NCBI GenBank assembly: GCA_965217865.1
Contig: CBDCJO010000002.1
Coordinates: 1,696,001-1,760,000, forward strand
Length of the DNA stretch: 64,000 nt
Direction of reading: 5' to 3'
Source: Candidatus Latescibacterota bacterium
GTDB taxonomy: Bacteria > Latescibacterota > UBA2968 > SICM01
Shown here piece after piece: positions 15,391 to 48,733 of this stretch. Each line of letters starts with the position of its first letter. Position 1 is the first letter of the stretch. The position numbers were made by a program, and so were the translations under genes. Below the pieces are notes generated by a model. That model worked only from the letters and a program-made list of their open reading frames with translations. It was not told the DNA's origin and searched no databases.

Positions 15391-15419
15391 TTGATTTTTC
15401 TCACAGTACCGGATATTAT
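15391..15419 (+). promoter_or_regulatory. Putative sigma70 promoter of the large cluster
   Basis: TTGATT-17 nt-TATTAT about 60 nt upstream of ATG 15479. Confidence 0.5.
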
Positions 15420-15478
15420 CTTTAAATAAGATCAGCAAGTGCAAATCCTCCAAGGACGGGTAGATCGAGGGAATTCGA

Positions 15479-17806
15479 ATGCATTTCAAGTTCAGTCTTA
15501 AGAACTTGACATTTCTCCACTTGTTATTGTTCCTAAGCATCGGTTTTCAAGACGGGCACCCCTCAGATTGGCCAAGCTGGCGGGGGCTGGATCAAAACGG
15601 TGTTTCGACCGAGTCCGGGCTCATCTCGGAATGGTCTGTGAAAGGGAAAAACCTGATCTGGAAAGCGAATTTCGTGGGCCGATCCACCCCGATCGTGCTT
15701 GACGGCCGGGTCTATGTGATGGGACGGGCGGGCCGTGAGATTACGAAGCAGGAGCGGGTTGCCTGCTTCGACGCTCGGACCGGGAACATGGTATGGGAAC
15801 ATCGATTCAACGTTTTTCATACCACGATCCCTTTTAACCGTGTGGGATGGGCGAGTCCGGTCGGTGATCCGGAAACCGGAAATATCTATGCCCACGGGGT
15901 TGGGGGCCCGTTGATTTGTTTCAACCGGGATGGCGATATTCTCTGGTCACGATCCCTGACCGAAGAATTCGGGAGAATTTCCGGGTATGGGGGCCGCGTC
16001 CATACACCGGTCGTGGACGAGGATCTCGTGATCATCAGTTTTCTCAATTCGAGCTGGGGTGACCAGATCGTTCCCAAGCATCGCTACTATGCCTTCGATA
16101 AGCTGAGCGGTGAAGTGGTCTGGGTCTCTGCACCGGGAGGAAGACCCCTGGATACCACCTACTCCACCCCCGTGGTCAAGGAAATTCAGGGACAGAGGCT
16201 CCTGATCGGGGGGAACGCGGACGGATGGATCTATGCGGTTAAAGTCAGGACAGGGAAAAAGGTCTGGGGATTTCAGCTCAGCAAACGAGGCATCAACTCC
16301 TCGGTGGTCGTGGTGGGGACAAGGGTTTATGCCTCTCACAGCGAAGAGAATATCGACAACACGGCGATGGGGCGCGTGGTCTGCATCGACGGGACGGGTA
16401 CCGGCGATATCACGAAGACAAACGAGGTCTGGCGATACGACGAATGTCTTGCGGGATATACCTCACCCGTAGCGCACGGTGGACGGGTTTATTTCGTTGA
16501 CAATTCGGCAAACATTCACTGTCTGGATGCCGGGACGGGTGAGTTAGACTGGAAATACAATCTCGGAACGGTGGGCAAGGGGTCCCCTGTCTGGGCGGAT
16601 GGCAAGCTCTACGCGCCGGAGGTCAACGGAACCATCCACATCGTTCAACCTGTCGAAAAAGGGGCCCAGAGGCTGGATGTTGAAAAGATCCGAGCCAGTG
16701 GAGGGCACCTGGCCGAGATATTTGGATCACCGGCGATCGGATATCGTAGAATCTACTTTGCCACCGAAGAAGGCCTATATTGTCTGGGGGACAAAGACAC
16801 CGAATTTTCCGCATCTTCAAAGGCAAGTTTGAAACCTGCCCCTTCCAAACCGGAATCTCCCGGGGATTCCGCAGATCGAGTTTCCGCCCCCGCTCACTTT
16901 CACATCGTACCTTCCGAAGTATCCGTTGCTCCTGGAAAATCGGTGGTTTTCCGTTGTCGAGCATTCGACAGGAATGGACAATTTCTGAAGGAAGTGACCC
17001 CGACGTGGTCGTTCGTTGGATTATCCGGGATGATCTCTCGCGATGGTATTTTTATCCCGGACCGGAGCGGTCCACAGGCCGGGACGCTGGTTGCCCGCCT
17101 GGGAGGGATAGAAGGCCGAGCCCGGGTCCGGGTGGTTCCGGATATCCCCTGGTCGGAGGACTTCGAGAGGATCCCGGTTGGCCAAAATCCCGCTCACTGG
17201 ATCGGAGCTTCTAAGAAATTTGTCGTGGCGCAGAAGGATGGGAATCGTGTGCTCGTTAAATCGCCCGTAAAAAGGGGATTAAATCGTTCGAATGTCTATC
17301 TGGGACCATCGACCTTGAAAGAATACACGATCCAGGCGGATCTGATGGGGAGCCGACATCGACGGAACCAGTCGGATATGGGGTTGATCGCAAACCGTTA
17401 TACCCTCGATATGATGGGGAACCATCAGCGACTTCAGGTTCGCTCCTGGGCTTCGGATTTACGGATGGCGAAAACCGTCGGTTTCCGTTGGGAGCCGGAT
17501 ATCTGGTATACCATGAAGATGCGTGTGGATATCCTGGATGGAAAAGGGGTCATCAGGGGAAAGGTATGGCGAAGAGGGGATCCGGAACCAGGGGTCTGGT
17601 CGATCTCCGCGGAGGATCCGCTGCCCAACCTGGAAGGAAGCCCGGGGCTTTATGGATACTCGGCAGCGGAAATTTGGTATGATAATGTGAAAGTCTGGGG
17701 TCAGGGGTCGGAAGTCAGGGGTCAGGGGTCGGAAGTCAGGGGTCAGGGGTCGGAAGTCAGGGGTCAGGGGTCGGAAGTCAGGGGTCAGGGAAAAGAAAAA
17801 CCGTGA
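15479..17806 (+). CDS. PQQ-binding-like beta-propeller protein with extra C-terminal beta-rich domains
   Basis: Signal peptide, DWPSWRG start motif, repeated S(T)P..G..Y / D..TG..W blades. C-terminal tail is (GQGSEVR)x4 translated from a repeat. Confidence 0.85.
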   Translation: MHFKFSLKNLTFLHLLLFLSIGFQDGHPSDWPSWRGLDQNGVSTESGLISEWSVKGKNLIWKANFVGRSTPIVLDGRVYVMGRAGREITKQERVACFDARTGNMVWEHRFNVFHTTIPFNRVGWASPVGDPETGNIYAHGVGGPLICFNRDGDILWSRSLTEEFGRISGYGGRVHTPVVDEDLVIISFLNSSWGDQIVPKHRYYAFDKLSGEVVWVSAPGGRPLDTTYSTPVVKEIQGQRLLIGGNADGWIYAVKVRTGKKVWGFQLSKRGINSSVVVVGTRVYASHSEENIDNTAMGRVVCIDGTGTGDITKTNEVWRYDECLAGYTSPVAHGGRVYFVDNSANIHCLDAGTGELDWKYNLGTVGKGSPVWADGKLYAPEVNGTIHIVQPVEKGAQRLDVEKIRASGGHLAEIFGSPAIGYRRIYFATEEGLYCLGDKDTEFSASSKASLKPAPSKPESPGDSADRVSAPAHFHIVPSEVSVAPGKSVVFRCRAFDRNGQFLKEVTPTWSFVGLSGMISRDGIFIPDRSGPQAGTLVARLGGIEGRARVRVVPDIPWSEDFERIPVGQNPAHWIGASKKFVVAQKDGNRVLVKSPVKRGLNRSNVYLGPSTLKEYTIQADLMGSRHRRNQSDMGLIANRYTLDMMGNHQRLQVRSWASDLRMAKTVGFRWEPDIWYTMKMRVDILDGKGVIRGKVWRRGDPEPGVWSISAEDPLPNLEGSPGLYGYSAAEIWYDNVKVWGQGSEVRGQGSEVRGQGSEVRGQGSEVRGQGKEKP

Positions 17807-17940
17807 AACATGAGATGGAACACGTGAGACGGGGGAAAGCAGTAGCAGGTGGCAGTGGAAGGAAAGGCAAAGGCGGGGGCCGGAGGTCCGGGGTCAGGGA
17901 TCAGAGGTCGGAGGGAATTGAATATTGAATATTGAATATT
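17697..17940 (+). repeat. Perfect 21-bp tandem repeat x4 followed by a composite cassette
   Basis: (GGGGTCAGGGGTCGGAAGTCA)x4 at 17697-17780, then GTGAAAC/GTGAGAC, AGTAGC and ATTGAAT units. Confidence 0.95.
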
Positions 17941-19370
17941 GCAAGAGAAGAGCGTTCAGCATCTTCGGGATTGTTTTGTTTTACATCGTTTCGATGGCCT
18001 CTGCCCAAGAAACGGCCATGTGGGGGATTACGCCTTCACGAAACATGGTCTCGGACGAAAAAGGCCTGCCCGAATTCTGGGACGCGGAGACGGGCATGAA
18101 TATCAAATGGACGGCAGCCCTGGGTTCTCAGACCTACGCAGGTCCGGTGGTCATTGGGGGCAAGGTGTTCGTCGGATCTAACAATCAGAGGGAGCGAAAT
18201 CGGAAGCACAAAGGGGACCGGGGGATCGTGATGGCGTTCCAGGAGGCGGACGGCAAGTTCCTCTGGCAGGCGACACATACCAAACTGCCGGCGGGGCGGG
18301 TCAACGACTGGCCGCAACAGGGGGTCTGTTCAACGCCGTATATCGAAGGAGACCGGCTCTACTATGTTTCGAACCGTTGTGAAGTCATTTGTCTGGACAC
18401 AGAGGGTTTTCTGGACGGAGAGAACGACGGCCTATTCGTTCATGAGGCTGACACCAGCGACATCGATGCGGATGTCATCTGGAAGCTGGATATGATCGAT
18501 GCGTTCAACGTGTTCCCTCACAACCTGGCCACCTCATCTCCGGTGGGGGTGGGCGATCTGCTATTTCTGGTCACAGGGAACGGTGTGGACGAAGGACACG
18601 TCCATATCCCAACGCCGTTTGCTCCGAGTTTTATTGCCGTCCATAAGAAAACCGGCAAAGTTGCCTGGGAGGACGCCTCCCCGGGGGAGAAGATCCTTCA
18701 CGGGCAATGGTCCAATCCCAGTTATGGGGTGATCAACGGCAGACCGCAGGTGATTTTCCCCGGCGGTGACGGCTGGATCTATTCTCTGGAACCGGAGACC
18801 GGGAAGCTCATCTGGAAGTTTGACTGCAACCCTAAGGATTCGGTTTGGGAACTCGGCGGCCGTGGGACTCGAAACAATATTGTTGCGACTCCGGTCGTTT
18901 ACGAAGACAGGGTCTACATCGGTGTCGGGCAGGACCCGGAACATGGCGAGGGGAAAGGACACCTCTGGGCCCTCGACGCAACGGGCGAGGGGGATATCAC
19001 CGACTCGGGTGTGATCTGGCACGTGGGGGGCGAGGATTTCAATCGGACCCTGTCCACGGTTGCGATCCACGAGGGACTGCTTTACACCGCAGACCTGAGC
19101 GGTTTCGTCTATTGTCTGGACGCTCGGACCGGGGAACGCTACTGGACCTATGATTCGTTTGCTGCGATATGGGGCTCCCCGCTCGTAGCGGATGGGAAGG
19201 TCTATATCGGCGATGAGGATGGAGATGTTGCGGTCCTTAAGGCAGGAAAGACATTCAAGTTGATCTATGAGGTCAACATGGGAAGCTCGGTTTATACCTC
19301 GCCGGTCGCAAAGGACGGTGTGCTTTATATCGGAAGTCGAAATACCCTTTTCGCGATTGCAACGAAATAG
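17925..19370 (+). CDS. PQQ-binding-like beta-propeller protein (start uncertain)
   Basis: Signal-like segment, [13 protein letters not shown], multiple propeller blades, [12 protein letters not shown]. Confidence 0.85.
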
Positions 19371-19379: not shown

Positions 19380-20459
19380 GTGGAGCATAAACTCTCGAAA
19401 AAAGTGGAAGAGGCGGAGAGGCGGCTCGATGCCCACGTTCGCGAGATGGTTGCGTGGCATTTCAATCCAGAGACGGGTTCCCCGTTTTGGCTGGAATTTG
19501 CGGAGAATCTGAAATTTGACCCGAGAAAGGAGATCAGGGGGTTTGGGGACTTGAAGGTTCTGGGCCATTTTCAGGATGAATGGCTTCGCGGGGGACCGGT
19601 CAGACGATGGGTGCCACGGGCTTATACCGGGGAACCCGTATATGTTTTTGAAACCGGGGGTTCGACGGGGATCCCGAAATGTCGCATCAACATTCGCGAT
19701 TTTCAGACCGATTATGAGATGTTCAGCCAGACGCTTTCCCAGGATGGCTTTCCGGAAGGGGCGGACTGGTTGATGTTGGGACCGACAGGTCCACGAAGAC
19801 TTCGGCTTGCCGTAGAATACCTTGCCCAACTTCGGGGTGGAATCTGTTTTATGGTGGATCTGGATCCAAGATGGGTCCATAAGCTTATCAAATATGGGAG
19901 GCATCAGGAGCTGGATGCCTATAAGGATCACGTCATCAACCAGGGCCTCCAGATTTTGAGGGCCCACGATAATGTTCGATGCCTGTTCACCACCCCAAGA
20001 CTGCTCGAGGCGCTTTGCGAAAAGATCTCGCTGCCGACCGTCGGTATCCAGGGTGTCTTTTGTGGAGGGACGGAGATGGATGCCCAGTTTCACCGGTTTG
20101 CGAGGGAGGAGTTGATTCCAGGTATTGAATTCCTTCCCGTGTACGGAAATACACTGATGGGACTGGCGTATGCCAAGCCGCATGATCCGGCGGATGGTTA
20201 TGCGGTAACCTACTATCCGCAATCTCCCCGCGCCGTGATCGAGCTCGTGAATCCTCGAGATCCCGATGAGACGGTCGGGTATGGTGAGACGGGCCGGGTC
20301 TGTCTGACCACGCTGACCCGGGAATTTTTCATGCCGAGGTTTTTAGAGCGGGACGAAGCGGAACGGGCGGAACCGATCGATCCCTATCCCTGGGATGGGG
20401 TTCGTAACCTTCGGCTCCTCTCGGAGCTTCAGGAGTCGGTCGTGGTGGGGGTGTATTAA
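19380..20459 (+). CDS. Short ANL-superfamily adenylating enzyme, EhpF/LuxE-like
   Basis: WHFNPETGSPFW, P-loop-like FETGGSTGIPK, YGNT, FLERD. At 359 aa it apparently lacks the usual C-terminal ANL domain. Confidence 0.7.
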   Translation: MEHKLSKKVEEAERRLDAHVREMVAWHFNPETGSPFWLEFAENLKFDPRKEIRGFGDLKVLGHFQDEWLRGGPVRRWVPRAYTGEPVYVFETGGSTGIPKCRINIRDFQTDYEMFSQTLSQDGFPEGADWLMLGPTGPRRLRLAVEYLAQLRGGICFMVDLDPRWVHKLIKYGRHQELDAYKDHVINQGLQILRAHDNVRCLFTTPRLLEALCEKISLPTVGIQGVFCGGTEMDAQFHRFAREELIPGIEFLPVYGNTLMGLAYAKPHDPADGYAVTYYPQSPRAVIELVNPRDPDETVGYGETGRVCLTTLTREFFMPRFLERDEAERAEPIDPYPWDGVRNLRLLSELQESVVVGVY

Positions 20460-20692
20460 TGCAAATGGAAAATGAAAAGTGCAAAAGTTCAGGGGTCGGA
20501 GGTCAGGGGTCAGGGAAAAAAAGTAGCAGTAGCAGTGGCAGTAGCAGAAAAAGCAGGGATCGGAGGTCAGGGGTCAGGCGAAAAAAGTAGCAGTGGCGGT
20601 AGCAGGAAAGGCACGGATTGGAGGTCGGAAGTCGGAGGTTAGGGTCAGGGAATGAAAATGCAAAGTGCCCAGTGCAAGATGGAAAGTGCAAA
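20460..20692 (+). repeat. Composite repeat cassette
   Basis: AAATGGA/AAGTGCA, GTCAGGG/GTCGGAG and AGTAGC units. Confidence 0.85.
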
Positions 20693-22258
20693 ATGATCCA
20701 CATTCCCGTATTGAGGTCCGGTCGGCCGTATCGGAGTCTAAAACTCCTGGACGTACGGCACGTCCAATCCGGGGAGGTTCTCGCCCATCTCAGTCAGGCA
20801 AACCGGGGGCTGATCTCGAAGGACCTGTCGGCCGCGGCATTCCATAGAAAGGGCCTCGAGGCATTTTCCGTTTCAGAACTCCTGACAATTTGCCGAAAGG
20901 CCGCCCGATTTTTCGCCGAGGAATCTTTGCAGCTTGACGGGACTTTACAGTCGGCTGAAGATTACGTGAAACAGGTCTCGGGCTCCACGGGCATGCCCGA
21001 GGCCTTGTGTCGAAAAAATATGGATAAGATCCGTTCGGTTCTGGAGAGGATGGAGGAGATCCTCGACGGGTTGACACGCGGACTGGATCTTTCGATTCTC
21101 GATTCCGGAAGGGGCATCCAGGATGGACGGCCCCTGAGTTTTTTCCCCCAGACAGATGCGCTGGGAGCCGTGCTTCCAAACAATTCCCCCGGTGTGCATT
21201 CCCTCTGGCTTCCTTCGATTCCCCTAAAGATTCCGCTTGTGCTCAAACCCGGAAGCGAGGAGCCCTGGACCCCCTTTCGTATCTCCCAGGCCTTTATCGC
21301 AGGGGGCTGTCCGCCTGAAGCATTCGGATATTATCCAACGGACTATTCAGGGGCGAGTGAGGTTCTGCTTCGCTGCGGACGCTCCATGTTGTTTGGAGGA
21401 GGGTCGACGGTCACCCCGTGGAAGGCGGATCCGAGGATTCAGATTCACGGGCCGGGTCGCAGCAAGATCATCCTGGGAAAGGACAGGGTCCACAATTGGG
21501 GAAATTATATGGAGGTCATGCTGGGATCCATCGTGGACAATGGGGGGAGGTCCTGCATCAATGCCTCAGGGATCTGGGTTCCGGAAAAGGGCCGGGAGAT
21601 CGCAGAGGTTCTTGCGGACCGTCTTTCGGAAATCGAGCCAAAGCCGCTTGACGACCCTGAGGCGAAACTTGCCGCTTTTTCGAATCCGAAGATGGCCAGA
21701 CGGATTTCTGAAACCATCGATCAGCAGTTGAAGGCCCCGGGAGCAAAAGAAATATCAGCAAGTGGCAGGAGCGAGAGGGTGGTTGAATTCGATGGGTGCA
21801 CTTTCCTCCGCCCGACGGTCATCTGGTGCGAAGATACGGAGCACCCTCTGGCGAACACGGAGTTTTTATTTCCGTTCGTGAGCGTGGTCCAGGTCCCCCA
21901 GGAGGAGATTCTGAAACGGATCGGGCCCACACTGACGGCCACTGCGATCACCGAGGATGAAGATTTTATCCGTGAGTTACTGGGATCTCAGGATGTGGAC
22001 CGTCTCAATTTAGGGGCGATATCCACAAACCATGTATCCTGGGACCAGCCCCACGAAGGGAATCTATTTGAGCATCTCTATCGACAAAGGGCTTTGCAAA
22101 TGCAGGGGCAGTGGCAGTGGCAGGAAAGCAAAGGCAGGGGCCAGAGGTCGGAGGTCAGAGGAAAGAAAAATCGTGAGACGTCAGACGTGAAACGTAAGAT
22201 CGCAAAGTCAGTAGCAGTGGCAGTGGCAGGAAATCAAGTCAGGGAATTGAAGAATTGA
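20693..22258 (+). CDS. Aldehyde dehydrogenase-fold protein, acyl-reductase (LuxC/EhpG-like) type
   Basis: LP.NSPGVH, VLKPG, catalytic-Cys motif GGRSCINAS, HGPG where hydrolytic ALDHs have ELGG, TEFLFP. The last ~50 aa are repeat-derived. Confidence 0.8.
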   Translation: MIHIPVLRSGRPYRSLKLLDVRHVQSGEVLAHLSQANRGLISKDLSAAAFHRKGLEAFSVSELLTICRKAARFFAEESLQLDGTLQSAEDYVKQVSGSTGMPEALCRKNMDKIRSVLERMEEILDGLTRGLDLSILDSGRGIQDGRPLSFFPQTDALGAVLPNNSPGVHSLWLPSIPLKIPLVLKPGSEEPWTPFRISQAFIAGGCPPEAFGYYPTDYSGASEVLLRCGRSMLFGGGSTVTPWKADPRIQIHGPGRSKIILGKDRVHNWGNYMEVMLGSIVDNGGRSCINASGIWVPEKGREIAEVLADRLSEIEPKPLDDPEAKLAAFSNPKMARRISETIDQQLKAPGAKEISASGRSERVVEFDGCTFLRPTVIWCEDTEHPLANTEFLFPFVSVVQVPQEEILKRIGPTLTATAITEDEDFIRELLGSQDVDRLNLGAISTNHVSWDQPHEGNLFEHLYRQRALQMQGQWQWQESKGRGQRSEVRGKKNRETSDVKRKIAKSVAVAVAGNQVRELKN

Positions 22259-22271: not shown

Positions 22272-23408
22272 ATGAAACCTTTTGAATTCTCCCATGGACA
22301 AAGGGTGGTTTTCGGTGAGGATTCGCTTGATCAGTTGGGGGGCCTGGCGGGGGAACCCGGAGATCACGTGTTAATCGTCACGGATCCGGGGATTGTAGGT
22401 GCCGGTATCGTGGAAAGGGCCGTCACCACGCTGGAGAAGGCCTCTCTGATACCGATCGTTTTTAAAGACGTTCGGGAAAATCCGACCACCCGAAACGTCG
22501 ATGAAGGGGTCCGGTTCGCGAAGGATCAGGAGAAGATCGATTTGATCATCGGGCTGGGGGGTGGGAGCGCGATGGACTGCGCCAAGGGAATCAACTTTGT
22601 GTTCACCAACGGCGGCCGGATGGAGGACTACTGGGGGGCGGACAAGGCGTCACTTCCGATGCTGCCATCGATCGGGATTCCCACGACGGCCGGGACCGGG
22701 AGCGAAGCCCAATCGTTCGCGTTGATCGCTCAGGAAAAGTCCCGTCAGAAAATGGCCTGCGGGGATCGGAAAGCCCGGTTTCGAACCGCGGTCCTGGATC
22801 CATCCCTGGTCAGATCTGCGCCCGAACACGTGGCTGCGGCTTCGGGGATGGATGCGATCTCGCACGCGGTCGAGAGTTATGTCAGCACAAAAAGGAATCC
22901 CTTTTCGCAAATGCTGGCTCGGGAATCGTGGAGGATCCTGGAGGGGAGCTTCGGGGAATTTTTGTCCGATCGGTCGAATCGCAAAGCGTGCAGCCAGATG
23001 CTTCTCGGTTCCCATCTGGCCGGAGCTTCCATCGAAAACTCAATGCTTGGGGCCGCGCACGCCTGTGCGAATCCTCTGACAGCCCGGTATGAGATACCTC
23101 ACGGTGTCGCAGTCGGAATGATGCTTCCGGGTGTGATTCAATTCAACAGTCAGGCTGAAGACCCCGAGGTCGGTGATCTCTATCTGGAATTACAGAATAT
23201 AAGGTCCAGAGACGGCTTATCCCTGGTGGATCAAATTCGAGAATTGAAGGCTGCGGCCGCCCAACCCGAAAGCCTGAGAGAACTCCGAGTCCGGGAAGCG
23301 GATCTGCCTGATCTAGCTCGGGAAGCGGCCGTTCAGGGGACCGGGAAATTCAATCCCCGACCGTTGGATGAATCGATACTGCTGGGTCTTTATGAGGACG
23401 CATATTGA
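22272..23408 (+). CDS. Iron-containing alcohol dehydrogenase
   Basis: GGGSAMD, PTTAGTGSE, DAISHAVE, AHACA, HGVA metal ligands. Confidence 0.92.
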   Translation: MKPFEFSHGQRVVFGEDSLDQLGGLAGEPGDHVLIVTDPGIVGAGIVERAVTTLEKASLIPIVFKDVRENPTTRNVDEGVRFAKDQEKIDLIIGLGGGSAMDCAKGINFVFTNGGRMEDYWGADKASLPMLPSIGIPTTAGTGSEAQSFALIAQEKSRQKMACGDRKARFRTAVLDPSLVRSAPEHVAAASGMDAISHAVESYVSTKRNPFSQMLARESWRILEGSFGEFLSDRSNRKACSQMLLGSHLAGASIENSMLGAAHACANPLTARYEIPHGVAVGMMLPGVIQFNSQAEDPEVGDLYLELQNIRSRDGLSLVDQIRELKAAAAQPESLRELRVREADLPDLAREAAVQGTGKFNPRPLDESILLGLYEDAY

Positions 23409-24626: not shown

Positions 24627-24630
24627 GGTT

Positions 24631-27480: not shown

Positions 27481-27569
27481 AAGAAAAACCGAGAAAGGTC
27501 AGACGTCAGACGTGAGACGGGGAGAAGCAGTAACAGTGGCAGGTGGCAGTGGCAGGAAAGGAAAGAATT

Positions 27570-36944: not shown

Positions 36945-36976
36945 AGGTTGCGGGATCCTGGAAAGACCGGATAAAG

Positions 36977-38284: not shown

Positions 38285-38703
38285 ATGTCGGGGAGTTTTA
38301 AAGATTTAAAAGTTTACCAAATGGCATATGAGTTGGCTATGGAAATTTTTGAACTTACCAAAAGCTTTCCGAAAGATGAAGCTTACTCCTTAACTAATCA
38401 GATTAGACGTTCTTCTCGTTCAGTATGTTCAAATATTGCAGAAGGGTATAGAAAACGCCGCTATCAAAAAATTTTGCTTTAAAAATGTCCGACGCAGATT
38501 CCGAATCCAGTGAAACCCTGGTCTGGTTAGATTTTTCAAAAGACTACGGGTACATTAATGATGATGTATATCAGTCGCTGTTAGTTAAGTACGAAGAGGT
38601 GGGAAGAATGTTAGGGGGAATGGCCGACCATCCTGGTCGCTTTACGCCCAAAGATGATTTTCCTGCTTCTGCCACTGCTACTTATTTCGAAGAGAATGAG
38701 TAA
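38285..38703 (+). pseudogene. Four-helix-bundle protein (23S rRNA IVS protein / TIGR02436-like), frameshifted
   Basis: FKDLKVYQ..FPKDEAYSLTNQIRRSSRSVCSNIAEG..RRY, then MSDADSESSET..WLDFS..GY in another frame. One extra A in the A6 run at 38466-38471 restores the frame. Confidence 0.85.
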
Positions 38704-38712
38704 AAACGGTGT

Positions 38713-38958
38713 ATGAAATCCCGAAAGGACGAGATGAAAAAAAATATTCCGAGAGGACTGCTCTATCTGGCGTTTTTCGTGCTCTATCTGCTTCACAACG
38801 ATCTCTGGTTTTGGCATGATCCAAGCCTGGTGTTGGGGATACCGATCGGGTTGATCTATCACATCGGGTTCTGCGTGGCGGCCTCGATATTGATGATTCT
38901 GCTGGTCAACTTTGCGTGGCCCCGGAATCTGCATGCCAACGGGGAAAGGGGAAAATGA
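38713..38958 (+). CDS. DUF3311-like small membrane partner of the SSS transporter
   Basis: LHNDLWFW..P..LGIPIGL.YH; two TM helices; stop overlaps the SSS ATG. Confidence 0.75.
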   Translation: MKSRKDEMKKNIPRGLLYLAFFVLYLLHNDLWFWHDPSLVLGIPIGLIYHIGFCVAASILMILLVNFAWPRNLHANGERGK

Positions 38959-41885: not shown

Positions 41886-42356
41886 GTGCCCTGGCTGATC
41901 TTCGCGATGATGACCGTTTGCTCTTGGGGGCTTTACGGTGTCTTTTTGCATACCGGTCAGATTTCCATGGCTGATCCGATCAACGGACGTTACAAGGCAT
42001 TCTTGTTTGTCGGGATCGCTTATCTCATGACCGCGGTGCTGGGATCACTGATCGTACTGCTCGTGAATGGTGCTTCGTGGGATTTTCCTGCGAAGGGCAT
42101 GACCTGGTCGATTCTCGCGGGGGTCGTGGGTGCGCTGGGTGCATTCGGCGTTCTGCTGGCCTTCGGAGCAAAGGGGACTCCCAGCGTGGTCATGGCGATC
42201 GTTTTCGCAGGCGCACCGATTGTCAATGCGATCGTTGCGATGTCCCTTCATCCCCCAGAAGGGGGATTTTCAAGTCTGAGCTGGCCGTTCCTCCTGGGTA
42301 TCCTCATGGCGGCTATGGGGGGGTGCTTAGTATCCCTGTACAGGCCGGGGACATGA
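41886..42356 (+). CDS. Small 5-TM membrane protein (EamA/DMT half-like)
   Basis: SWGLYG, GVVGALG, VFAGAPIVN; hydrophobic throughout. Confidence 0.7.
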   Translation: MPWLIFAMMTVCSWGLYGVFLHTGQISMADPINGRYKAFLFVGIAYLMTAVLGSLIVLLVNGASWDFPAKGMTWSILAGVVGALGAFGVLLAFGAKGTPSVVMAIVFAGAPIVNAIVAMSLHPPEGGFSSLSWPFLLGILMAAMGGCLVSLYRPGT

Positions 42357-42505
42357 GTCGGGGGTCAGGGGTCGGAGGTCAGAGGTCAGAGGTCAGGGAT
42401 CAGGGTCGGGGGAAAGTGAAGATTGAATATTGAAAAGATCCACAGGACCACAAGAAAGTCCTGAGTGGTTCAAATGTTCAATTTTCCGATATTCAATATT
42501 CATTG
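42356..42505 (+). repeat. Composite repeat cassette with inverted arms
   Basis: GTCAGAG units, then ATTGAA arm, core CCACAAGAAAGTCCT, and TTCAAT arm before ATG 42514. Confidence 0.85.
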
Positions 42506-42513
42506 AGTTTAAG

Positions 42514-42933
42514 ATGGCATCTGAATTCCATACAAAACGGCGAATAGAATTCTCCGACACGGACATGGCCGGGATCGTTCATTTTGCCCGGTTTTTTGTT
42601 TTCATGGAAGCCGCCGAGCACGAATTCCTTCGTTCCCTCGACATGAGTGTCTCGATGGAGCACGATGGAAACGTGATCAGCTGGCCCAGGCTGTCCACTT
42701 CGTGCGAATACCTGCATCCTGTCAGGTTCGAGGACGAGCTGGGTATCCATCTGAAGGTTGAAAGGATTGGCACCAAATCCATCACATACCAATTTGAATT
42801 TTCAAACGGAGATGCGATCGTTGCCCGGGGAAAGCTGAAGGCTGTTTGTTGCATCTGCAATCCGGGGGAAGATATGAAGGCGACTCCGATACCCAATTTT
42901 ATCACGGAACGGATGAAGGGAGAATCCGCGTAA
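42514..42933 (+). CDS. Acyl-CoA thioesterase (4HBT/YbgC hotdog family)
   Basis: FSDTDMAGIVHF motif and P.RFED. Confidence 0.9.
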   Translation: MASEFHTKRRIEFSDTDMAGIVHFARFFVFMEAAEHEFLRSLDMSVSMEHDGNVISWPRLSTSCEYLHPVRFEDELGIHLKVERIGTKSITYQFEFSNGDAIVARGKLKAVCCICNPGEDMKATPIPNFITERMKGESA

Positions 42934-42982: not shown

Positions 42983-43666
42983 ATGTCCAGCTCGCCATCA
43001 CTTAAAGTTTCCGATATCACCAAAAGCTTCGAGAGAGAAGCGGGTCCCATCGAGGTGCTCAAGGGAATTTCGTTTGAGATGACCGAGGGTCAATCGCTTG
43101 CGATTACCGGTCCCTCGGGTTCCGGAAAGAGCACCCTTTTGCATTTGATCGGTTCTTTGGACAGGCCGTCGGCCGGATTGGTCGAGATCAATGGGATCGA
43201 TCCAGCCGGTCTTCGAGAACCGGAATTAGCCCGATTTCGGAACCGTGTCGTGGGTTTCGTCTTTCAGGACCACCATCTTTTGCAGCAGTATTCCGTTCTT
43301 GAAAATGTGCTCATTCCCACCCTGGCGCACGGCAAACCTGATTCCGAATCCGAAAATCGTGCAAGAGAAATCCTCGAACGGGTCGGGCTTTCCGAACGCC
43401 TGGATCATCTCCCTTCGGCGTTATCCGGGGGAGAATGCCAGCGGGTTGCGGTCGCACGAGCGCTAATTAATCGTCCCGCACTTTTGCTCTGCGATGAGCC
43501 CACGGGCAATCTCGACCGAAATACCGCCCATTCTGTCGCCTCGGTTTTATTCGAACTCCACCGCGCAGAAAAGAATATCCTGATCGTTGTGACCCACAGC
43601 CTCGACCACCTCCCCCTTTTTGATCGGTGTTTGGAATTGAAGGAGGGAACTTGCGTCGAAGTTTAA
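42983..43666 (+). CDS. ABC ATP-binding protein (LolD/MacB-like)
   Basis: GPSGSGKS, GFVFQ, LSGGE, DEPTGNLD. Confidence 0.92.
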   Translation: MSSSPSLKVSDITKSFEREAGPIEVLKGISFEMTEGQSLAITGPSGSGKSTLLHLIGSLDRPSAGLVEINGIDPAGLREPELARFRNRVVGFVFQDHHLLQQYSVLENVLIPTLAHGKPDSESENRAREILERVGLSERLDHLPSALSGGECQRVAVARALINRPALLLCDEPTGNLDRNTAHSVASVLFELHRAEKNILIVVTHSLDHLPLFDRCLELKEGTCVEV

Positions 43667-46600
43667 TCTATTTCTGGCGCGTCAACACGGCGGTGATCGT
43701 TGCCGCCGCGATTGCCACTTCGGTACTCACGGGTGCGTTTCTTGTGGGTGATTCCGTCCGGGGGAGCCTGAGAGACCTCACCCTGGATCGGCTGGGTCGA
43801 ATCGATTATGCGTTGACCTCAGACCGGTTTTTCCGCGAAGGTTTAGCACGCGAACTGTCCAACGAGAGGTCCTTTTCATCCCGGTTTGATGATGCTGTTC
43901 CTGCGATTTTGTTGAACGGGTCCGCACTGGACGTCAAGGTGGGATCGAGGGCTTCCGGCATCCAAATCCAAGGCATCGATGAACGCTTCCTGGCCCTGAT
44001 GGCCGACCAGCCGGGGTTTCCCGACGGATTCTTCCTGAAGAGACCGGATCAAAACTTCCCTTCGATCGTCATCAACGAATCCCTTCAGAGGGAGCTGGGT
44101 TCCGAAATCGGCGATCCCATCCTGATCTCTTTTGAAAGACAGAGCGAGGTTCACCGTGAATCCCTGCTTGGCCGCCGAAACTCCGCGGACGTCGTTCGAT
44201 CCCTCCGACTCACCCTTACTCATGTCATCCCGGACCGGGGTACCGGAAGGTTCGGTCTTCGACCCCGTCAGGGCACCCCGCTGAATGCCTTCGTCTCTCT
44301 ACCTGTGTTGGCCCAAGCCCTTGGACAGGAGGGCCGGGTCAACACCCTTTTAACGGGTCAAAAGGGGTCATCCCCGCCCGGCTTCTCCGAGCGGAATGGG
44401 ACGCAAACGCTGCAGGCCCTACTCGGGGGCGTTTTGAAGCTGGACGACCTGGGCTTAATTCTGCGGCGGGACATGGACCGTGTTTCTCTCGAAAGCAAAC
44501 GGTACTTGCTTTCCCCTCACACGGTCGAGGTTGCAAGATCGCTTTCGATTGAGCTCAGGACGCCGCATTTGCCCCTTTTCACTTATCTGGCAAATTCCAT
44601 CAGGGGGAACAAACGAACCATTCCTTATTCGACGATCACCGCCATTGATTTCGATTGGATCGGAAGACCTGAAGAGCAGGGGGTATTCGGGCAGATACGA
44701 TGGGCCAGTGGAACACCCGGAGGCCAACTGGCGGATGACGAGATCCTGTTGAATGAATGGACAGCCCAGGATCTGGGCGTGAAAGTCGGTGATCCCGTGA
44801 AGGTCGCTTACTATGTTGTGGGTCCGGGGGAAGAGCTTCATACCCGAGAAACGAAATTCCGGTTGAAGGGCGTTCTGGAGCTCAGCGGGTTTGCCGCAGA
44901 TCCCGGGTTGGCACCGAAATTTCCCGGAATCCTGGACGCGGATGATATTTCGGCCTGGGAGGCCCCCTTTCCGATGGACATGAAACAAATTCGTCCGAAA
45001 GATGAGGCCTACTGGGATGAGTTTGGCGCCGCTCCCAAGGCCTTTATATCAGGAAGGACGGGAAAACGCTTATGGGGAAACCGATTCGGGAGTCTTACCG
45101 GGATCTGGATCGGTTCGCCACCCGGAGGTGATCTGGAGGGGACGCTGGTCGACTTTCGTAAAGGGTTGTTGGACAGGATTAGGCCAGAGGAAGTCGGTCT
45201 TGCCTTCATCCCTGTCAAAGCGGAAGGATTAGGGGCGGCTACGGGGGCCACGGATTTCAGCGGTCTGTTCATTGGATTCAGCCTGTTTCTGATCGTGTCT
45301 GCGGCCCTTCTGGTCGGATTGCTTTTCAGGCTGGGCGTGGAGGAGCGGGTTAAGGAGGTGGGAACGTTGCTGTCGCTGGGTTATCCGATGCCCGCAATCC
45401 GTCGGCGTTTTATGGGGGAGGGGATTATCCTGGCCGGGATCGGTGGGATGCTTGGGGTTGGAGGTGCGGTCGTGTATGCCTGGCTGCTTACCTTGGGTTT
45501 GCGAACCTGGTGGTTGGCGGCAGTAGGGAGCCCTTTTATCTTCCTCCACATCGACCCACTCAGTCTGGCCGGTGGTTACCTCATCTCTCTCCTGGTGGCG
45601 CTGATTTCCATCCGGTTCTCGTTTCGATTGTTCGGCCGAATGCCTGTCCGGGCTTTATTGTCCGGTGTCGTGGACATGATTCGGGGCGGATCGGCCAGGA
45701 TGGCCAGGAGGTTGGGTTATTTTGGTCTGAGCCTGGGTGTTTTTTTGATCGTCGCTGCCCTTATCCGGGGGACGGGATCATCCGTGGAGCTTTTTTTTGG
45801 GAGCGGTGCGGCCTTTCTGACCGGGGGTCTGGCCTTTTTCTCCGTGTGGATCCAATCGCGGAGGCATCGAGGAAAGTATCGGCTGGGTTTTGGAACAATT
45901 TTAAGAATGGGAGCTAGTAACTGTGCGCGTCGTCCCGGGCGCAGCCTTCTCTGTACAGGTCTGGTGGGTTGTGCGTGCTTTGTCATCGTATCGGTGGGGT
46001 CGAGTCGTCGGGAGGAGATGCCATCTGGAACGGCGACAGGGACCGGGGGGTTCGATCTAGTTGCGGAATCGGACATCCCGCTACATCACGATCTTAACAC
46101 TGAAGCGGGCAGGTTTGAGATGGGATTTCCGAAGGAAGGGGGGTGGCTTAAGGATTCCGTAGTCTTTCCTTTTCGAACCCTCCCGGGAGAGGATGTGAGC
46201 TGTCTCAATCTTTATCGACCGGAAAGACCGAGAATTCTCGGAGTTTCCCGTGGCATGATAAGTCGGGGGGGATTTCAATTTCAGGAGGTCCTAAGCCGGA
46301 CTCTTGAGGAGGCGGAAAACCCGTGGCTCATCTTAGAGAAAGAAATCGAGCCGGGGGTGATTCCGGCGATCGGGGATTACAACTCGGTCCGATGGATTTT
46401 ACATCTGGGGCTGGGCCAGGATCTGAACATCCGGGACGAATCGGGCAGGGAGACACGGCTTCGCCTGGTCGGACTTTTGCACAACAGCCTGTTTCAGGGG
46501 GAGCTGTTGATTTCGGAAGCTTCGTTTACAAGGCTTTTTCCCAACAGGAGCGGTTACGGATATTTCCTCGTCGAGACGCCTCCCGCAAAGGACCGCGAGG

Positions 46601-47079
46601 TCGCGTTTGAACTGGAGCAAAATCTCGGCACCTATGGCTTCGACGTTTCTCGAACGGGCGAAAAGTTGGCCCGATACCAGTCCGTTGAAAACACGTACCT
46701 ATCGACGTTTCAAACGCTGGGCGGTCTCGGGCTGATTCTGGGAACTTTCGGCCTGGGGATTGTCCTGATTAGAAATGCAATCGAAAGACGTGGCGAACTG
46801 GCCACCCTGCGCGCGTTCGGTTTCCGCCGATCGACACTGATGACAATGCTTCTGGCTGAGAACGGTTTTACTCTCGTCCTCGGTCTTCTGATCGGGAGTG
46901 TCTCGGCACTCATCGCCGTGGCGCCCCATTTGATCAGCCAGGGAGGGAATATTCCCTGGTTTTCCCTTATTATCACTTTGATCCTGGTCGGCCTTTTTGG
47001 TTTGGCGGCCAGCGCCGCAGCGGCCTTCTATGCGGTCAAAGCTCCCCTTATGCCTTCCCTCAAATCGGAGAGGGGTTGA
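43627..47079 (+). CDS. Large FtsX/MacB-type ABC permease with two repeats (start uncertain)
   Basis: VGDSVRGSL; two ER..E..L..LG/FG FtsX motifs; large periplasmic loops. Confidence 0.85.
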   Translation: MFGIEGGNLRRSLIYFWRVNTAVIVAAAIATSVLTGAFLVGDSVRGSLRDLTLDRLGRIDYALTSDRFFREGLARELSNERSFSSRFDDAVPAILLNGSALDVKVGSRASGIQIQGIDERFLALMADQPGFPDGFFLKRPDQNFPSIVINESLQRELGSEIGDPILISFERQSEVHRESLLGRRNSADVVRSLRLTLTHVIPDRGTGRFGLRPRQGTPLNAFVSLPVLAQALGQEGRVNTLLTGQKGSSPPGFSERNGTQTLQALLGGVLKLDDLGLILRRDMDRVSLESKRYLLSPHTVEVARSLSIELRTPHLPLFTYLANSIRGNKRTIPYSTITAIDFDWIGRPEEQGVFGQIRWASGTPGGQLADDEILLNEWTAQDLGVKVGDPVKVAYYVVGPGEELHTRETKFRLKGVLELSGFAADPGLAPKFPGILDADDISAWEAPFPMDMKQIRPKDEAYWDEFGAAPKAFISGRTGKRLWGNRFGSLTGIWIGSPPGGDLEGTLVDFRKGLLDRIRPEEVGLAFIPVKAEGLGAATGATDFSGLFIGFSLFLIVSAALLVGLLFRLGVEERVKEVGTLLSLGYPMPAIRRRFMGEGIILAGIGGMLGVGGAVVYAWLLTLGLRTWWLAAVGSPFIFLHIDPLSLAGGYLISLLVALISIRFSFRLFGRMPVRALLSGVVDMIRGGSARMARRLGYFGLSLGVFLIVAALIRGTGSSVELFFGSGAAFLTGGLAFFSVWIQSRRHRGKYRLGFGTILRMGASNCARRPGRSLLCTGLVGCACFVIVSVGSSRREEMPSGTATGTGGFDLVAESDIPLHHDLNTEAGRFEMGFPKEGGWLKDSVVFPFRTLPGEDVSCLNLYRPERPRILGVSRGMISRGGFQFQEVLSRTLEEAENPWLILEKEIEPGVIPAIGDYNSVRWILHLGLGQDLNIRDESGRETRLRLVGLLHNSLFQGELLISEASFTRLFPNRSGYGYFLVETPPAKDREVAFELEQNLGTYGFDVSRTGEKLARYQSVENTYLSTFQTLGGLGLILGTFGLGIVLIRNAIERRGELATLRAFGFRRSTLMTMLLAENGFTLVLGLLIGSVSALIAVAPHLISQGGNIPWFSLIITLILVGLFGLAASAAAAFYAVKAPLMPSLKSERG

Positions 47080-47101
47080 TCTCCAAGAAGCAGGAGATAT
47101 A

Positions 47102-48733
47102 TCAGGAGTCGGGGGCCGGATCCAATGGCAACTCGTAACACGCAGCCTCCCGGTCGTTCCTGACGAGTAGATAAGATCCGGCCAGCGCCGGATTGTTCCA
47201 TGTCTTGCCCCTGAGTGCCGGAAAGCTGCTGAGCTCTTTGAATCGGTTCGGGTCTGCTTCGACCAGTGCAATCTCGCCTGATTCGGCCAGTACGATCAAG
47301 ATGTCTCCAACCAGGATCATCTGTCCGTGTCCGTAGCGCCCCCGCTTCCACGCGCGTTGACCGTCGGTGAGATTCAAACAGACCAGGACACCGTCATCCA
47401 GCCCATATAGATATCCCCCGCGGTGAACGACGTTCGTGAACTTGGCCTTAAGGCGTGTTGTCTCCCAAACGAGCGTTGCTTCCAAATTTCCTTTCTCATT
47501 CCGAAAAATCTGAAACAGCTTGCAGCCGATACCATAGCCGCTTGAAACGAATACGCGATCCCCGGGCAAGGGGACGGGTTGAGCGACGCATTCCACGCCT
47601 TCAGGCCATGGATGCTCCCAGAGGAGACTCCCGGTGACCGGATCGTGTGATGCCACATTTGCCCGGTTGAAGATGAGGATTTGAGGGACCCCCGCCAGCC
47701 TGGTGATCAGGGGAGAGCTATAGCCCGCGGGATCCTCTCCCCCGCCCCACACGAGCCGGCCGGACTCCTGGTGGTAAGCGATCAGGGACCTTCCCCCATG
47801 CCCTCCAGCACTGACTACGACGAGACTGTCGATGATCAGCGGAGAACCGCTCATCCCCCAGTGGTTCATGTTTGCGTTGTTCGATTCGATGATATCGTGA
47901 GACCAGATCCGCCTTCCCGTTCGAAGATCGAGACAGTTGAGGATTCCGGTGGCGCCCAGGGTGTAGACACGATTCTTTTCGATCGTCGGTGTGGCTCGAG
48001 GCCCGATCCCTGCAAGGGTCGTCTCATACCTGGTTTTATCGCTGTGCCGCCACCTTTCCTGACCGGTTTTCAGGTCGTAACAGACGACCATCTCCAGTTC
48101 CCCGCTCTGCTCCTGAGTGACCGCATCATTACCGACAACCGCGAATGCGGACCAACCCTCCCCGATTTCCCTTCTCCATATCAATCGCGGCGGACGCTTC
48201 GACCAATCCCGTGATATGGGGATCCCCGGGAGGACCGCATTACGATCCGGTCCCAGAAACTGCGGGTAGTCCTCAACTGAAGACGAGGGTGCACTATCGA
48301 TATCGTGTAAGAAAGTGTCAGGAACGATCGTGTTCATTCCTGAACGCTCAACCCATCGCCAAGTTAGAATGGGAACCATGTCTCCACTCACGCCACCGAC
48401 CCGGAGCAGACCCACGGACGAAGCAAACACGAGGAGGAAGACAGCGAACACAAGCAGACGAATTTTCAGGGATGTACGGGAAAAGAACAGCCACCAGATC
48501 AGGAGCGCTAGGACCGTCACGATCGACACGGATATCGTCTTAAAGGCCTGCGATTGTCGGCTCGGGGCGTCGGATGACCATATGAAGACGATCAACAATA
48601 GGGACAACAGAACCACAACGGGAAGGGGCCACCAGCGGATGGGATTCCCGGATGAACGTTCCCCTTCCGGTTTCCGAGAAGCGCCTGATCCGCGGGACCG
48701 GATCGATTTCAGGATTGATATGATGCCACCCAT
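47102..48733 (-). CDS. Membrane-anchored PQQ-binding-like beta-propeller protein
   Basis: Three N-terminal TM helices, DYPQFLGPDRN, GPRATP, GYSSP, KTWNNPALAG. Confidence 0.88.
   Translation of the reverse strand: MGGIISILKSIRSRGSGASRKPEGERSSGNPIRWWPLPVVVLLSLLLIVFIWSSDAPSRQSQAFKTISVSIVTVLALLIWWLFFSRTSLKIRLLVFAVFLLVFASSVGLLRVGGVSGDMVPILTWRWVERSGMNTIVPDTFLHDIDSAPSSSVEDYPQFLGPDRNAVLPGIPISRDWSKRPPRLIWRREIGEGWSAFAVVGNDAVTQEQSGELEMVVCYDLKTGQERWRHSDKTRYETTLAGIGPRATPTIEKNRVYTLGATGILNCLDLRTGRRIWSHDIIESNNANMNHWGMSGSPLIIDSLVVVSAGGHGGRSLIAYHQESGRLVWGGGEDPAGYSSPLITRLAGVPQILIFNRANVASHDPVTGSLLWEHPWPEGVECVAQPVPLPGDRVFVSSGYGIGCKLFQIFRNEKGNLEATLVWETTRLKAKFTNVVHRGGYLYGLDDGVLVCLNLTDGQRAWKRGRYGHGQMILVGDILIVLAESGEIALVEADPNRFKELSSFPALRGKTWNNPALAGSYLLVRNDREAACYELPLDPAPDS

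Follow-up and report, generated by a model that had tools for sequence, protein, structure and literature searches.

Pairs of an adenylating enzyme and an ALDH-fold reductase are known from the grixazone (GriC/GriD) and D-alanylgriseoluteic acid (EhpF/EhpG) systems; GriC/GriD convert 3-amino-4-hydroxybenzoate to the aldehyde (PMC10179220), while EhpF is part of a phenazine-diacid pathway (PMC3175449). Chorismate lyases that feed 4-hydroxybenzoate to a flavin halogenase have been reported for the bmp/baa systems, where BaaB was compared with Bmp5, a free-acid halogenase (bioRxiv 10.1101/723874). In YbbAP-TesA, a LolD/YbbA-like ATPase is paired with a double-FtsX permease made as one chain, and, in the available part of the source, there is no MacA/TolC (PMC12646458). 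PQQ quinoproteins, BamB, and the TIGR04528 proteins (acido-empty-quinoproteins) have in common the eight-bladed PQQ-type repeat fold. Finally, Loureiro et al. (bioRxiv 10.64898/2026.08.03.742642) listed Halo_AMP, an uncharacterised pseudoclass of sponge-microbiome clusters defined by a search rule (PF04820 scoring at least 10 bits and no more than 5 kb away from an AMP-binding gene), with hosts in Acidobacteriota, Latescibacterota, and Poribacteria.

We analysed a gene cluster in a 64,000-nucleotide stretch of a Candidatus Latescibacterota genome (the window). It has in common with Halo_AMP a Bmp2-like halogenase and a PaaK-like ligase (BagE/YtkN hits) as well as PQQ-like domains, TonB, thioesterase, glycosyltransferase, and radical SAM genes; the halogenase scores 86 bits with PF04820 (not antiSMASH's own profile) and adjoins the PaaK-like gene. 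In its available part, the Halo_AMP text does not name an EhpF/EhpG pair, Fe-ADH, double-FtsX ABC, or chorismate lyase, and focuses on one of 20 components (CC A) with P450s and a barettin proposal; no cytochrome P450 was found in the cluster or among 83 neighbours scanned. An earlier note on this DNA called the system a candidate undescribed one, a label to be qualified, as similar, uncharacterised gene sets have already been listed in that preprint. Unlike the GriC/GriD and EhpF/EhpG systems, the cluster lacks phenazine and 3,4-AHBA synthesis genes, and its adenylase-reductase pair stands together with genes for an Fe-ADH, a halogenase, a radical SAM enzyme, a GT4, an ABC, and propellers. 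In contrast to bmp/baa, its halogenase is CndH/PltA/Bmp2-like and flanked by a CoA ligase and a thioesterase, with reduction and glycosylation genes following, and its ABC differs from YbbAP-TesA in a 1150-aa permease and the lack of TesA. Our preferred reading, with a probability of roughly 0.4, is that 4-hydroxybenzoate, made or imported, is converted to a halogenated, reduced, and glycosylated aromatic, which a type VII ABC hands to periplasmic propellers.

Extent and conservation of the cluster

The features are listed by position in the window and strand, with the basis of assignment in brackets.

15479..17806, +, P1, PQQ-like propeller with a C-terminal extension of about 300 aa; core (PF13360)
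17925..19370, +, P2, eight-bladed propeller; core (Pfam, structure model)
19380..20459, +, EhpF/GriC-type adenylating enzyme; core (PDB EhpF 3l2k, E 1.3e-41, residues 19-359)
20618..22258, +, EhpG/GriD-like ALDH-fold reductase, likely start 20693; core (PF00171)
22272..23408, +, iron-containing alcohol dehydrogenase (Fe-ADH); core (PF00465)
23496..24626, +, P3, BamB-like repeat propeller; core (Pfam; TIGR03300 131.7 bits, cut-off 285)
24445..25983, +, HemN-like class C radical SAM enzyme, likely start 24634; core (PF04055 and HemN_C)
26197..27480, +, P4, propeller; common, variable (Pfam, relatives' loci)
27543..32933, +, local insert: GSDH six-bladed propeller, aldo/keto reductases AKR1 (frameshifted), AKR2, and AKR3, GFO oxidoreductase (Pfam)
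32930..35053, +, TonB-dependent receptor; in many, not all, carriers (TIGR01783 over cut-off)
35050..35646, +, Rv2949c-like chorismate pyruvate-lyase, family A1 (PF01947, alignment)
35487..36944, +, PaaK-like aryl-CoA ligase, likely start 35646 (NCBIfam)
36941..38245, +, flavin-dependent halogenase, CndH/PltA/Bmp2 type; core (solved relatives, motifs)
38285..38703, +, frameshifted four-helix-bundle gene (23S rRNA IVP family), passenger (PF05635 in two frames)
38713..40412, +, DUF3311 small protein and sodium:solute symporter (Pfam; 12 hydrophobic segments)
40244..41716, +, GT4 glycosyltransferase, likely start 40409; core (Pfam)
41886..42356, +, five-helix membrane protein, EamA-like by eye only (no family match)
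42430..42933, +, hotdog (4HBT/YbgC-type) thioesterase (Pfam, NCBIfam, relatives' loci)
42983..47079, +, LolD/YbbA-like ATPase and 1150-aa double-FtsX permease (type VII ABC); core (Pfam, NCBIfam)
47102..48733, -, P5, membrane-anchored propeller, convergent on the permease; variable (Pfam, hydrophobic segments)

The + strand carries 25 genes between 15479 and 47079, a count that includes the frameshifted four-helix-bundle gene and the DUF3311 gene; P5 converges on this run. ORF calls, Pfam, NCBIfam, and translations recovered the families and genes named by the earlier note, which had omitted the GSDH propeller, the three aldo/keto reductases, the GFO oxidoreductase, the five-helix membrane protein, and the four-helix-bundle gene. 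Its statement that PKS, NRPS, carrier protein, and pqq genes are missing held within the ORFs scanned: no PKS, NRPS, or pqq family was found among the scanned ORFs of the cluster and no carrier protein among ORFs of at least 100 aa, smaller ORFs being covered in 29400-29900 and 38200-39000 only. By contrast, its single putative promoter was not supported; the candidate site (15391-15419) matches in 9 of 12 positions, and promoter-like sites occur at chance level (7 observed vs 9.3 expected).

A core of about 18 genes is a real conserved system in several phyla of mostly uncultured bacteria. Its order is preserved in 7 of 10 relatives and also across phyla, and the core is mostly single-copy, with 55-80% identity between phyla and records from soil and marine sites. 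Among 121 Acidobacteriota genomes, the EhpF-like adenylase was found in 32, P2 in 33 (including all 32 EhpF carriers), the ABC permease in 32 (31 of them EhpF carriers), and the radical SAM enzyme and the halogenase in 30 and 29, respectively, every one an EhpF carrier; 27 of 40 sampled relatives of the source genome also carry EhpF, and because sampled kin are not independent, these co-occurrence counts are overstated. Cross-phylum order and the near-perfect co-occurrence of five core genes exceed chance, and the proposal that aromatic tailoring, transporters, and propellers form one system, co-occurring in other genomes, was supported. EhpF occurs isolated, without the cluster, in four Poribacteria loci.

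That unrelated genes have aggregated by chance has a negligible probability for the core, for which it is refuted by order and co-occurrence; it holds only for the insert at 27543-32933 and the four-helix-bundle gene. No full orthologue of the insert was found in 40-kb regions of 10 relatives, while GFO orthologues lie downstream of P4 in L018 and G044; the AKR1 frameshift recurs in DNA contigs X1, X2, and X4, and the four-helix-bundle gene has an allele with a one-base insertion in run X4. The 25-gene set is therefore not a unit as originally described: GSDH, AKR1-3, and GFO are local, and the chorismate lyase and PaaK are optional.

Likely entry substrate and predicted halogenation

PF01947 was detected in 20 of the 40 relatives, each of them one of the 27 EhpF carriers, and in none of the 13 non-carriers; the A1 lyase of the window lacks one conserved Gly in the alignment. 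In 45 of 80 metagenome loci, the gene directly 3' of the lyase is a PaaK orthologue, often with DAHP synthase or aroA/aroC/aroB as neighbours, and a block of lyase, halogenase, thioesterase, and PaaK recurs in three phyla-level contexts. In Sulfidibacter, Acanthopleuribacter, a Calditrichia MAG, and G112, the gene immediately 5' of the halogenase belongs to a second, divergent lyase-like family (A4), which is found in 8 of the 121 Acidobacteriota genomes, carriers only. A4 matches A1 over its full length (hhalign E 7e-5, probability 63%) and PDB 2nwi (E 5.5e-4), with a weak Pfam match (E 0.03, 1 of 4 members); A4 may be chorismate-lyase-like, a weak assignment. The tie of two divergent chorismate-lyase-like families to the cluster is new here. 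As each has the halogenase or CoA ligase as its neighbour and is carrier-only in both genome samples, 4-hydroxybenzoate is a likely entry substrate, in line with the original proposal. Since the source genome has MqnA/D-family genes, the lyase is probably dispensable for its quinone.

In some two thirds of the Acidobacteriota carriers, lyase and PaaK are missing; only 10 of 32 have a PaaK orthologue. None was found in five of five TonB-bearing carriers tested (best 30% identity), nor was a lyase in five of five carriers tested with PF01947; the five PaaK-less carriers retain halogenase and thioesterase, which counts against a PaaK-made CoA tether in those carriers. One cluster (G095) lacks both TonB and PaaK. 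That many carriers without lyase and ligase have a TonB receptor suggests a division into makers and importers and agrees with the earlier wording that the pathway "makes or salvages" its compound. It would also fit a salvage core that takes up an aromatic or heteroaromatic acid other than 4-hydroxybenzoate from outside and modifies it, with lyase and ligase as a side branch: TonB receptor and symporter are located within the cluster, and as EhpF stems from a phenazine-diacid pathway, the acid reduced here could be another aromatic. We consider this unlikely, as in both samples only carriers have the two distinct lyase families, which adjoin the halogenase or PaaK, and as the four-gene block recurs in three phyla-level contexts.

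In the halogenase, K90, W235-x-W237-x-x-P240, and F319-x-D-P-x-x-S-x-G327 are conserved in 27 of 27 rows; the flavoprotein has GxGxxG, WxWxIP, the catalytic Lys, and FxDPxxSxG, which we take to be halogenase motifs. Its best PDB relatives are of the CndH, PltA, and ChlB4 types. Below-cut-off matches to QhpG (E 4e-38) and LodB, together with a Trp that is invariant in the P2 loops, would suit a QhpG/LodB-like hydroxylase that yields a quinone or catechol, either free or formed on a residue of a propeller; given that the closest solved relatives are halogenases and that all three motifs and the Lys are invariant, this is very improbable. No flavin reductase was found among the cluster ORFs scanned, and none of them, with small ORFs partly covered, encodes the carrier protein expected as halogenase partner. 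Halogenation of a CoA-bound ring would explain the flanking ligase and thioesterase and would need no carrier protein.

Predicted reduction, glycosylation, and transport

The catalytic motifs of the cluster enzymes are intact in the alignment rows. In the EhpG/GriD-like reductase, present in 70 of 80 EhpF loci, the Cys is kept and a His replaces the general-base Glu, both in 82 of 82 rows; this Glu is the hydrolytic one of ALDH-fold enzymes. The EhpF/EhpG-type pair is likely a carrier-free carboxylate reductase. D194, H198, H263, and H277 of the Fe-ADH are present in 31 of 31 rows. The radical SAM enzyme has CxxxCxxC in 32 of 32 rows and matches HemN and NocN; equivalog identity with HemN, HemW, and ChuW/HutW was rejected (164 of 325, 141 of 205, and 178 of 400 bits, respectively; NCBIfam cut-offs). 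Class C radical SAM enzymes add a methyl or methylene carbon to a ring. In the GT4, the motif MYCGxC is invariant and a third Cys is also conserved; its model shows a two-domain GT-B fold (pLDDT 86.8; about 58 in the motif region).

The five-helix membrane protein has orthologues with 38-74% identity in other clusters. The ABC classes as type VII by its single-chain double-FtsX permease and LolD/YbbA-like ATPase; the permease has no PDB sequence match, and the cluster holds no MacA/TolC partner. Type VII ABCs extract hydrophobic molecules (PMC12646458), EhpF, reductase, GT4, and ABC form a fixed block in Blastocatellia, and the lyase-PaaK pair also occurs in glycan loci with acyltransferase_3, all of which could point to envelope decoration, with the GT4 attaching a (halo)hydroxybenzyl unit to a glycolipid or glycan and the ABC moving the conjugate. 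However, the core lacks acyltransferase, flippase, polymerase, and nucleotide-sugar genes, and a structural decoration would hardly call for importers, making this improbable. Alternatively, a halogenated phenolic may be secreted for defence or signalling, with propellers as binders or maturation enzymes and TonB for recapture; chorismate lyase and halogenase make bromophenols in baa/bmp (bioRxiv 10.1101/723874), and the Halo_AMP preprint (bioRxiv 10.64898/2026.08.03.742642) interprets similar clusters in this way. The missing MacA/TolC partner and a mostly single-copy core with 55-80% identity across phyla in soil and sea, which resembles a housekeeping cofactor route, render it quite unlikely.

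Propellers and the proposed route

Five PF13360 propellers were confirmed, P1 standing immediately upstream of P2 in most loci. Of the claim that all five are exported, the number stands; P5, with three N-terminal hydrophobic segments, probably has an inner-membrane anchor, and its position is matched in G012, G014, and G049. By hydropathy, P2 and P3 start with a hydrophobic stretch, but none rises above threshold in P1 and P4, whose N-termini are signal-like by eye only. The P1 extension had no Pfam match and no family was found for it. The predicted structure of P2 (pLDDT 85.8) has eight four-stranded blades with invariant His, Asp, Glu, and Trp in inter-strand loops. Compared with PQQ quinoproteins, BamB, and TIGR04528, the cluster propellers are far under all cut-offs, shorter, and without vicinal cysteines. 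Identity as PQQ alcohol/glucose dehydrogenases (TIGR03075/03074; best 87 of 480 bits, no Cys-Cys in P1-P5) was rejected, as was BamB (best TIGR03300 score under half its cut-off). In the 96% complete source genome, pqqC was not found (the same model matches 7 of 121 genomes elsewhere) and nothing exceeded the cut-off for pqqE.

Propeller copy number is higher in cluster carriers, with a median of 8 PF13360 matches per genome (3-15, n=27), about 3 of which the cluster itself contributes, vs 1 (0-4, n=13) in non-carriers. The suggestion that the product is the cofactor of a large orphan propeller family did not fare as well: TIGR04528 is distributed independently of the cluster, and 5 of about 7 PF13360 genes in the source genome lie inside it.

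Under our preferred reading, chorismate lyase would form 4-hydroxybenzoate (family function, with the substrate from gene context), which the PaaK-like ligase would convert to the CoA thioester; the tethered-substrate halogenase would then halogenate the CoA-bound ring and the thioesterase free the acid. At a stage that is not fixed, the radical SAM enzyme could add a methyl or methylene carbon, as family knowledge suggests. By likeness to EhpF and GriC/GriD, the adenylase-reductase pair would turn the acid into an aldehyde and the Fe-ADH the aldehyde into a benzyl alcohol, to which the Cys-motif GT4 may join a sugar. By analogy to YbbAP-TesA, the double-FtsX ABC would extract the product from the membrane and pass it to a propeller, with P1/P2 as putative binder or user. 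Carriers without lyase and ligase likely import the acid or an intermediate via the TonB receptor and symporter.

A bolder reading, which we regard as doubtful, is that the product, a hydroxybenzyl glycoside with halogen and methyl groups or its quinoid form, is an organic cofactor of a new kind: the type VII ABC would load it onto PQQ-like propellers in the periplasm, and makers and importers would exchange it much as bacteria share a vitamin. If true, this would account for a large PQQ-like propeller family in genomes without pqq genes. More generally, the system may supply orphan propellers with a ligand, and it contains a halogenase likely acting on a CoA ester, a predicted carboxylate reductase that needs no carrier protein, and a GT4 whose site has three cysteines. 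The question is narrowed to direct tests by a specific substrate for entry, a small number of enzymes, and the isotope signature of a halogen, with Sulfidibacter corallicola and Acanthopleuribacter pedis as cultured carriers. With the core in about a quarter of sampled Acidobacteriota and two thirds of sampled relatives, an organohalogen may be produced widely in soils, sediments, and sponges.

Composition and co-inheritance of the cluster

In this genome (6.4 Mb, 96% complete, 9% contaminated), open reading frames, Pfam and NCBIfam matches and translations identified 25 forward-strand genes at 15479-47079 followed by one convergent propeller gene, in agreement with the roughly 25 co-directional genes and closing propeller of the earlier note. 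The single putative promoter proposed for them did not hold up, as the site at 15391 is at chance level. The gene order, with P1 to P5 denoting PF13360 PQQ-like propellers, is:

15479-47079 (+), first part: P1, P2, EhpF-like adenylase, ALDH-fold protein (Ald, an EhpG/GriD-like reductase), Fe-ADH, P3, HemN-like radical SAM protein, P4, GSDH, AKR1-3, GFO
15479-47079 (+), middle: TonB receptor, chorismate lyase, PaaK-like ligase, halogenase, broken four-helix-bundle gene, DUF3311, SSS, GT4
15479-47079 (+), end: five-helix membrane protein, hotdog thioesterase, ABC ATPase, 1150-aa permease
47102-48733 (-): P5

Short degenerate repeats with units of ~7 nt occupy the gaps at 14985-15479, 17806-17925, 20459-20618, 29640-29870 and 30727-30959 and run into the C-termini of P1, Ald and P4; five repeat motifs have 61-424 copies each genome-wide, and no account of these repeats turned up in the open-licence literature. 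The cluster contains a broken four-helix-bundle (PF05635) gene, a family that may be linked to such repeats. AKR1 (28755-29640) is split by a frameshift, with identical sequence in contigs of sequencing runs X1, X2 and X4; minor contigs of run X6 have a one-base gap within this stretch. Elsewhere in the window we observed:

623-7324 (-): Alternative complex III genes (ActD, NrfD, Fe-S/molybdopterin-like subunit, multiheme cytochrome)
10211-13935 (+): ABC-2/GldG-like transporter with DUF4340
14056-14985: 309-aa ORF with hydrophobic N-terminus and no family match
52391-54671 (+): PAS histidine kinase with HisKA and HATPase/receiver parts in overlapping ORFs, likely a frameshift
58001-62433: GC up to 63-65%, many short ORFs and an adjoining AIPR-family gene; possible mobile or repeat element

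EhpF had 406 relatives among the candidates of a species-level genome scan, and the best 80 of these, at 67-80% identity, belong to records of Poribacteria, Latescibacterota, KSB1, Calditrichia, Gemmatimonadota and Acidobacteriota. The closest orthologues are in Poribacteria and Latescibacterota records and the best whole-cluster match is in Latescibacterota, which probably places the host among these groups. An ALDH-fold gene lies 3' of EhpF in 70 of these best 80 loci, while the other ten stop soon after EhpF (5), are from Poribacteria (4) or lead directly to Fe-ADH (1). Among ten relatives read over 40 kb each, the order EhpF-Ald-FeADH-P3-rSAM-(P4)-(TonB)-PaaK-Hal-(SSS)-GT4-membrane protein-TE-ABC is largely preserved in seven, of which two lack P1-P2 at the start; in the other three the cluster is interrupted by an insert (one) or fragmented (two). 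GSDH, full AKR1-3 and the lyase are absent from the 40-kb cluster regions of all ten.

We sampled 121 Acidobacteriota genomes evenly and called orthologues with author-chosen E-value thresholds. EhpF was found in 32, the halogenase in 29 and the radical SAM protein in 30 (every one an EhpF carrier), P2 in 33 (including all 32 carriers) and the ABC permease in 32, of which 31 are carriers; these counts treat kin, which are not independent, as separate genomes and include genome G090, on which none of the conclusions rests and without which each positive count is one lower. The genes co-occur in other genomes, as the earlier note had anticipated: the enzymes, permease and propeller are co-inherited even where cluster genes are dispersed, and we regard it as nearly certain that the cluster is a real conserved unit. 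Two partial sets were seen where EhpF was not detected, P1-P2-P3 at a contig end (G136:C9, L254) and P3-ABC on a short contig (G116:C88, L255); either may reflect an assembly gap.

Probable origin and tailoring of the aromatic acid

Lyases of the window's Rv2949c-like family (PF01947) occurred in 20 of 40 relatives; all 20 belong to the 27 EhpF carriers, and the 13 non-carriers have no such gene. In relatives the gene is mostly distant from the cluster; it adjoins displaced cluster genes in G027, G029, G031 and G021. A PaaK orthologue lies directly 3' of the lyase in 45 of 80 metagenome loci (64 of the 80 have 400 bases of room), and a scan of 95 neighbours chosen from 21 loci placed the pair next to DAHP synthase in four long loci, next to shikimate genes in one and often within glycan loci with acyltransferases. 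Because the lyase is followed by PaaK, often near DAHP synthase or shikimate genes, the pair most likely yields 4-hydroxybenzoyl-CoA. That the lyase instead serves respiratory quinone supply is unlikely, since the window's genome has MqnA/D-family genes and non-carriers do without the lyase.

The window's own lyase (35050-35646) is missing one Gly that is kept in 30 of 30 homologues, with the same sequence in X1 and X2 contigs. Four genomes have a second, divergent lyase-like family (A4, 178 aa) immediately 5' of the halogenase, and among the 121 Acidobacteriota genomes this family is present in 8, all carriers; it matches the window's family over full length and also PDB 2nwi, and its assignment is weak. 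In seven metagenome loci (L134, L142, L165, L181, L182, L202 and L210) the lyase-PaaK pair sits among glycan genes together with DAHP synthase, sulfotransferases, acyltransferase_3 and a long AMP-binding enzyme; these probably represent a distinct hydroxybenzoylation system that has not been described. An EhpF homologue that is only distantly related (37%) lies opposite a lyase-PaaK-ligase-acyltransferase block at L165:8202-9269.

When ten further Acidobacteriota clusters and others were compared, seven had TonB and no PaaK, three had PaaK and no TonB within the stretch read, that of G095 had neither, that of G103 had neither within 40 kb and that of G160 had both. PaaK was present in 10 of 32 Acidobacteriota carriers and absent genome-wide in five TonB carriers checked; PF01947 was absent in five carriers checked. 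As many carriers have TonB without PaaK or lyase, these data suggest that uptake can stand in for synthesis of the starting acid. The main difficulty for the route is that PaaK-less carriers retain halogenase and thioesterase without a visible tethering enzyme.

The best solved relatives of the halogenase are 8zop, CndH, PltA and ChlB4. The Lys lines up with that of CndH, and together with the Trp and FxDP motifs it is invariant across 27 rows; the length of 434 aa is like that of halogenases working on tethered substrates, and a CoA ligase and a thioesterase bracket the gene. In the ALDH-fold protein the Cys is retained and His replaces the general-base Glu, the pattern expected for acyl-enzyme reduction. 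GriC/GriD convert 3-amino-4-hydroxybenzoate to its aldehyde (PMC10179220) and EhpF is linked to steps downstream of phenazine-1,6-dicarboxylate (PMC3175449). Neither the metal ligands of Fe-ADH nor the radical SAM motif vary among the aligned rows, and from their sequences the cluster enzymes look active. GT4 has an invariant MYCGxC (Cys-x-x-Cys) and a third near-invariant Cys across 37 rows (window 40409-40470 and ~40890); its model has a normal two-domain fold with the MYCGxC region poorly ordered, which would fit a possible bound metal, unusual for the GT4 family. We put the probability that a 4-hydroxybenzoate-type acid undergoes halogenation and reduction at about two in three.

Propellers and transport

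The P2 model has eight blades of four strands each. Its invariant residues map, by secondary structure only, to the loops that follow strands b and d, and in this fold these loops share one face. The model orders several of the residues poorly, as would suit a putative ligand or partner site. P1-P5 are all far from the NCBIfam quinoprotein and BamB cut-offs, and the earlier statement that there is no pqq gene extends to the whole genome for pqqC and pqqE, both absent in a profile search (the pqqC model was positive elsewhere as a control). Mutual exclusion of PQQ synthesis and the cluster was rejected, as pqqC occurs in carriers (3) as well as in non-carriers (4). A P1-P2 fusion, to which long open frames of G086, G112 and G147 had pointed, was also rejected, since the genes are in different frames.

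The suggested correlation between cluster presence and propeller number was borne out: strong PF13360 matches have a median of 8 in carriers versus 1 in non-carriers, an excess over the three that the cluster contributes in the window's genome. First-look candidates in Acidobacteriota, which are not copy numbers, show a similar trend, with 21-233 in the 18 carriers listed and 0-36 in the 28 non-carriers listed. The proposal that the product is the ligand or cofactor of the large orphan propeller family fared poorly, as the window's genome has only two propeller genes outside the cluster, each alone, and TIGR04528, the orphan acido-empty-quinoprotein family, occurs without the cluster. The cluster as cofactor source for TIGR04528 proteins was likewise rejected: with only 11 candidates scored in each genome, carriers make up 15 of the 26 genomes that have matches, and non-carriers make up 5 of the 7 above cut-off.

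The permease has two FtsX repeats in a single chain and a LolD/YbbA-like partner ATPase. The ABC pair claimed earlier is present; plain export is too simple a description, and a type VII reading is preferred. The permease has no sequence match in PDB, and in Atlas the permease and propeller match nothing but unnamed FtsX and PQQ_2 clusters of Acidobacteriota and Planctomycetota origin. Complex prediction for the first periplasmic domain of the permease with P5 gave no answer (score 0.00), which counts neither way. The full route, in which 4-hydroxybenzoate would be made or imported, converted to a CoA ester, halogenated, freed, reduced, glycosylated and passed by the type VII ABC system to the propellers, is tentative, and a genuinely new cofactor is an unlikely product.

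Relation to described systems

Loureiro et al. mined halogenase plus AMP-binding (Halo_AMP) clusters in sponge metagenomes from the same phyla, with frequent PQQ-like domains, TonB, thioesterase, glycosyltransferase and radical SAM, BagE-like ligases and Bmp2-like halogenases, and assigned no product (bioRxiv 10.64898/2026.08.03.742642). Panter et al. associated the dibromo-anisic acid of a planctomycete with a lyase plus a Bmp5-like brominase, which belongs to another halogenase class than the cluster's (10.1101/723874). The open-licence literature yielded no characterisation of the whole gene set, in line with the earlier claim. The system is real, widespread and so far without characterisation, and in kind the cluster would be a self-contained pathway for tailoring aromatic acids with an unusual envelope module attached.
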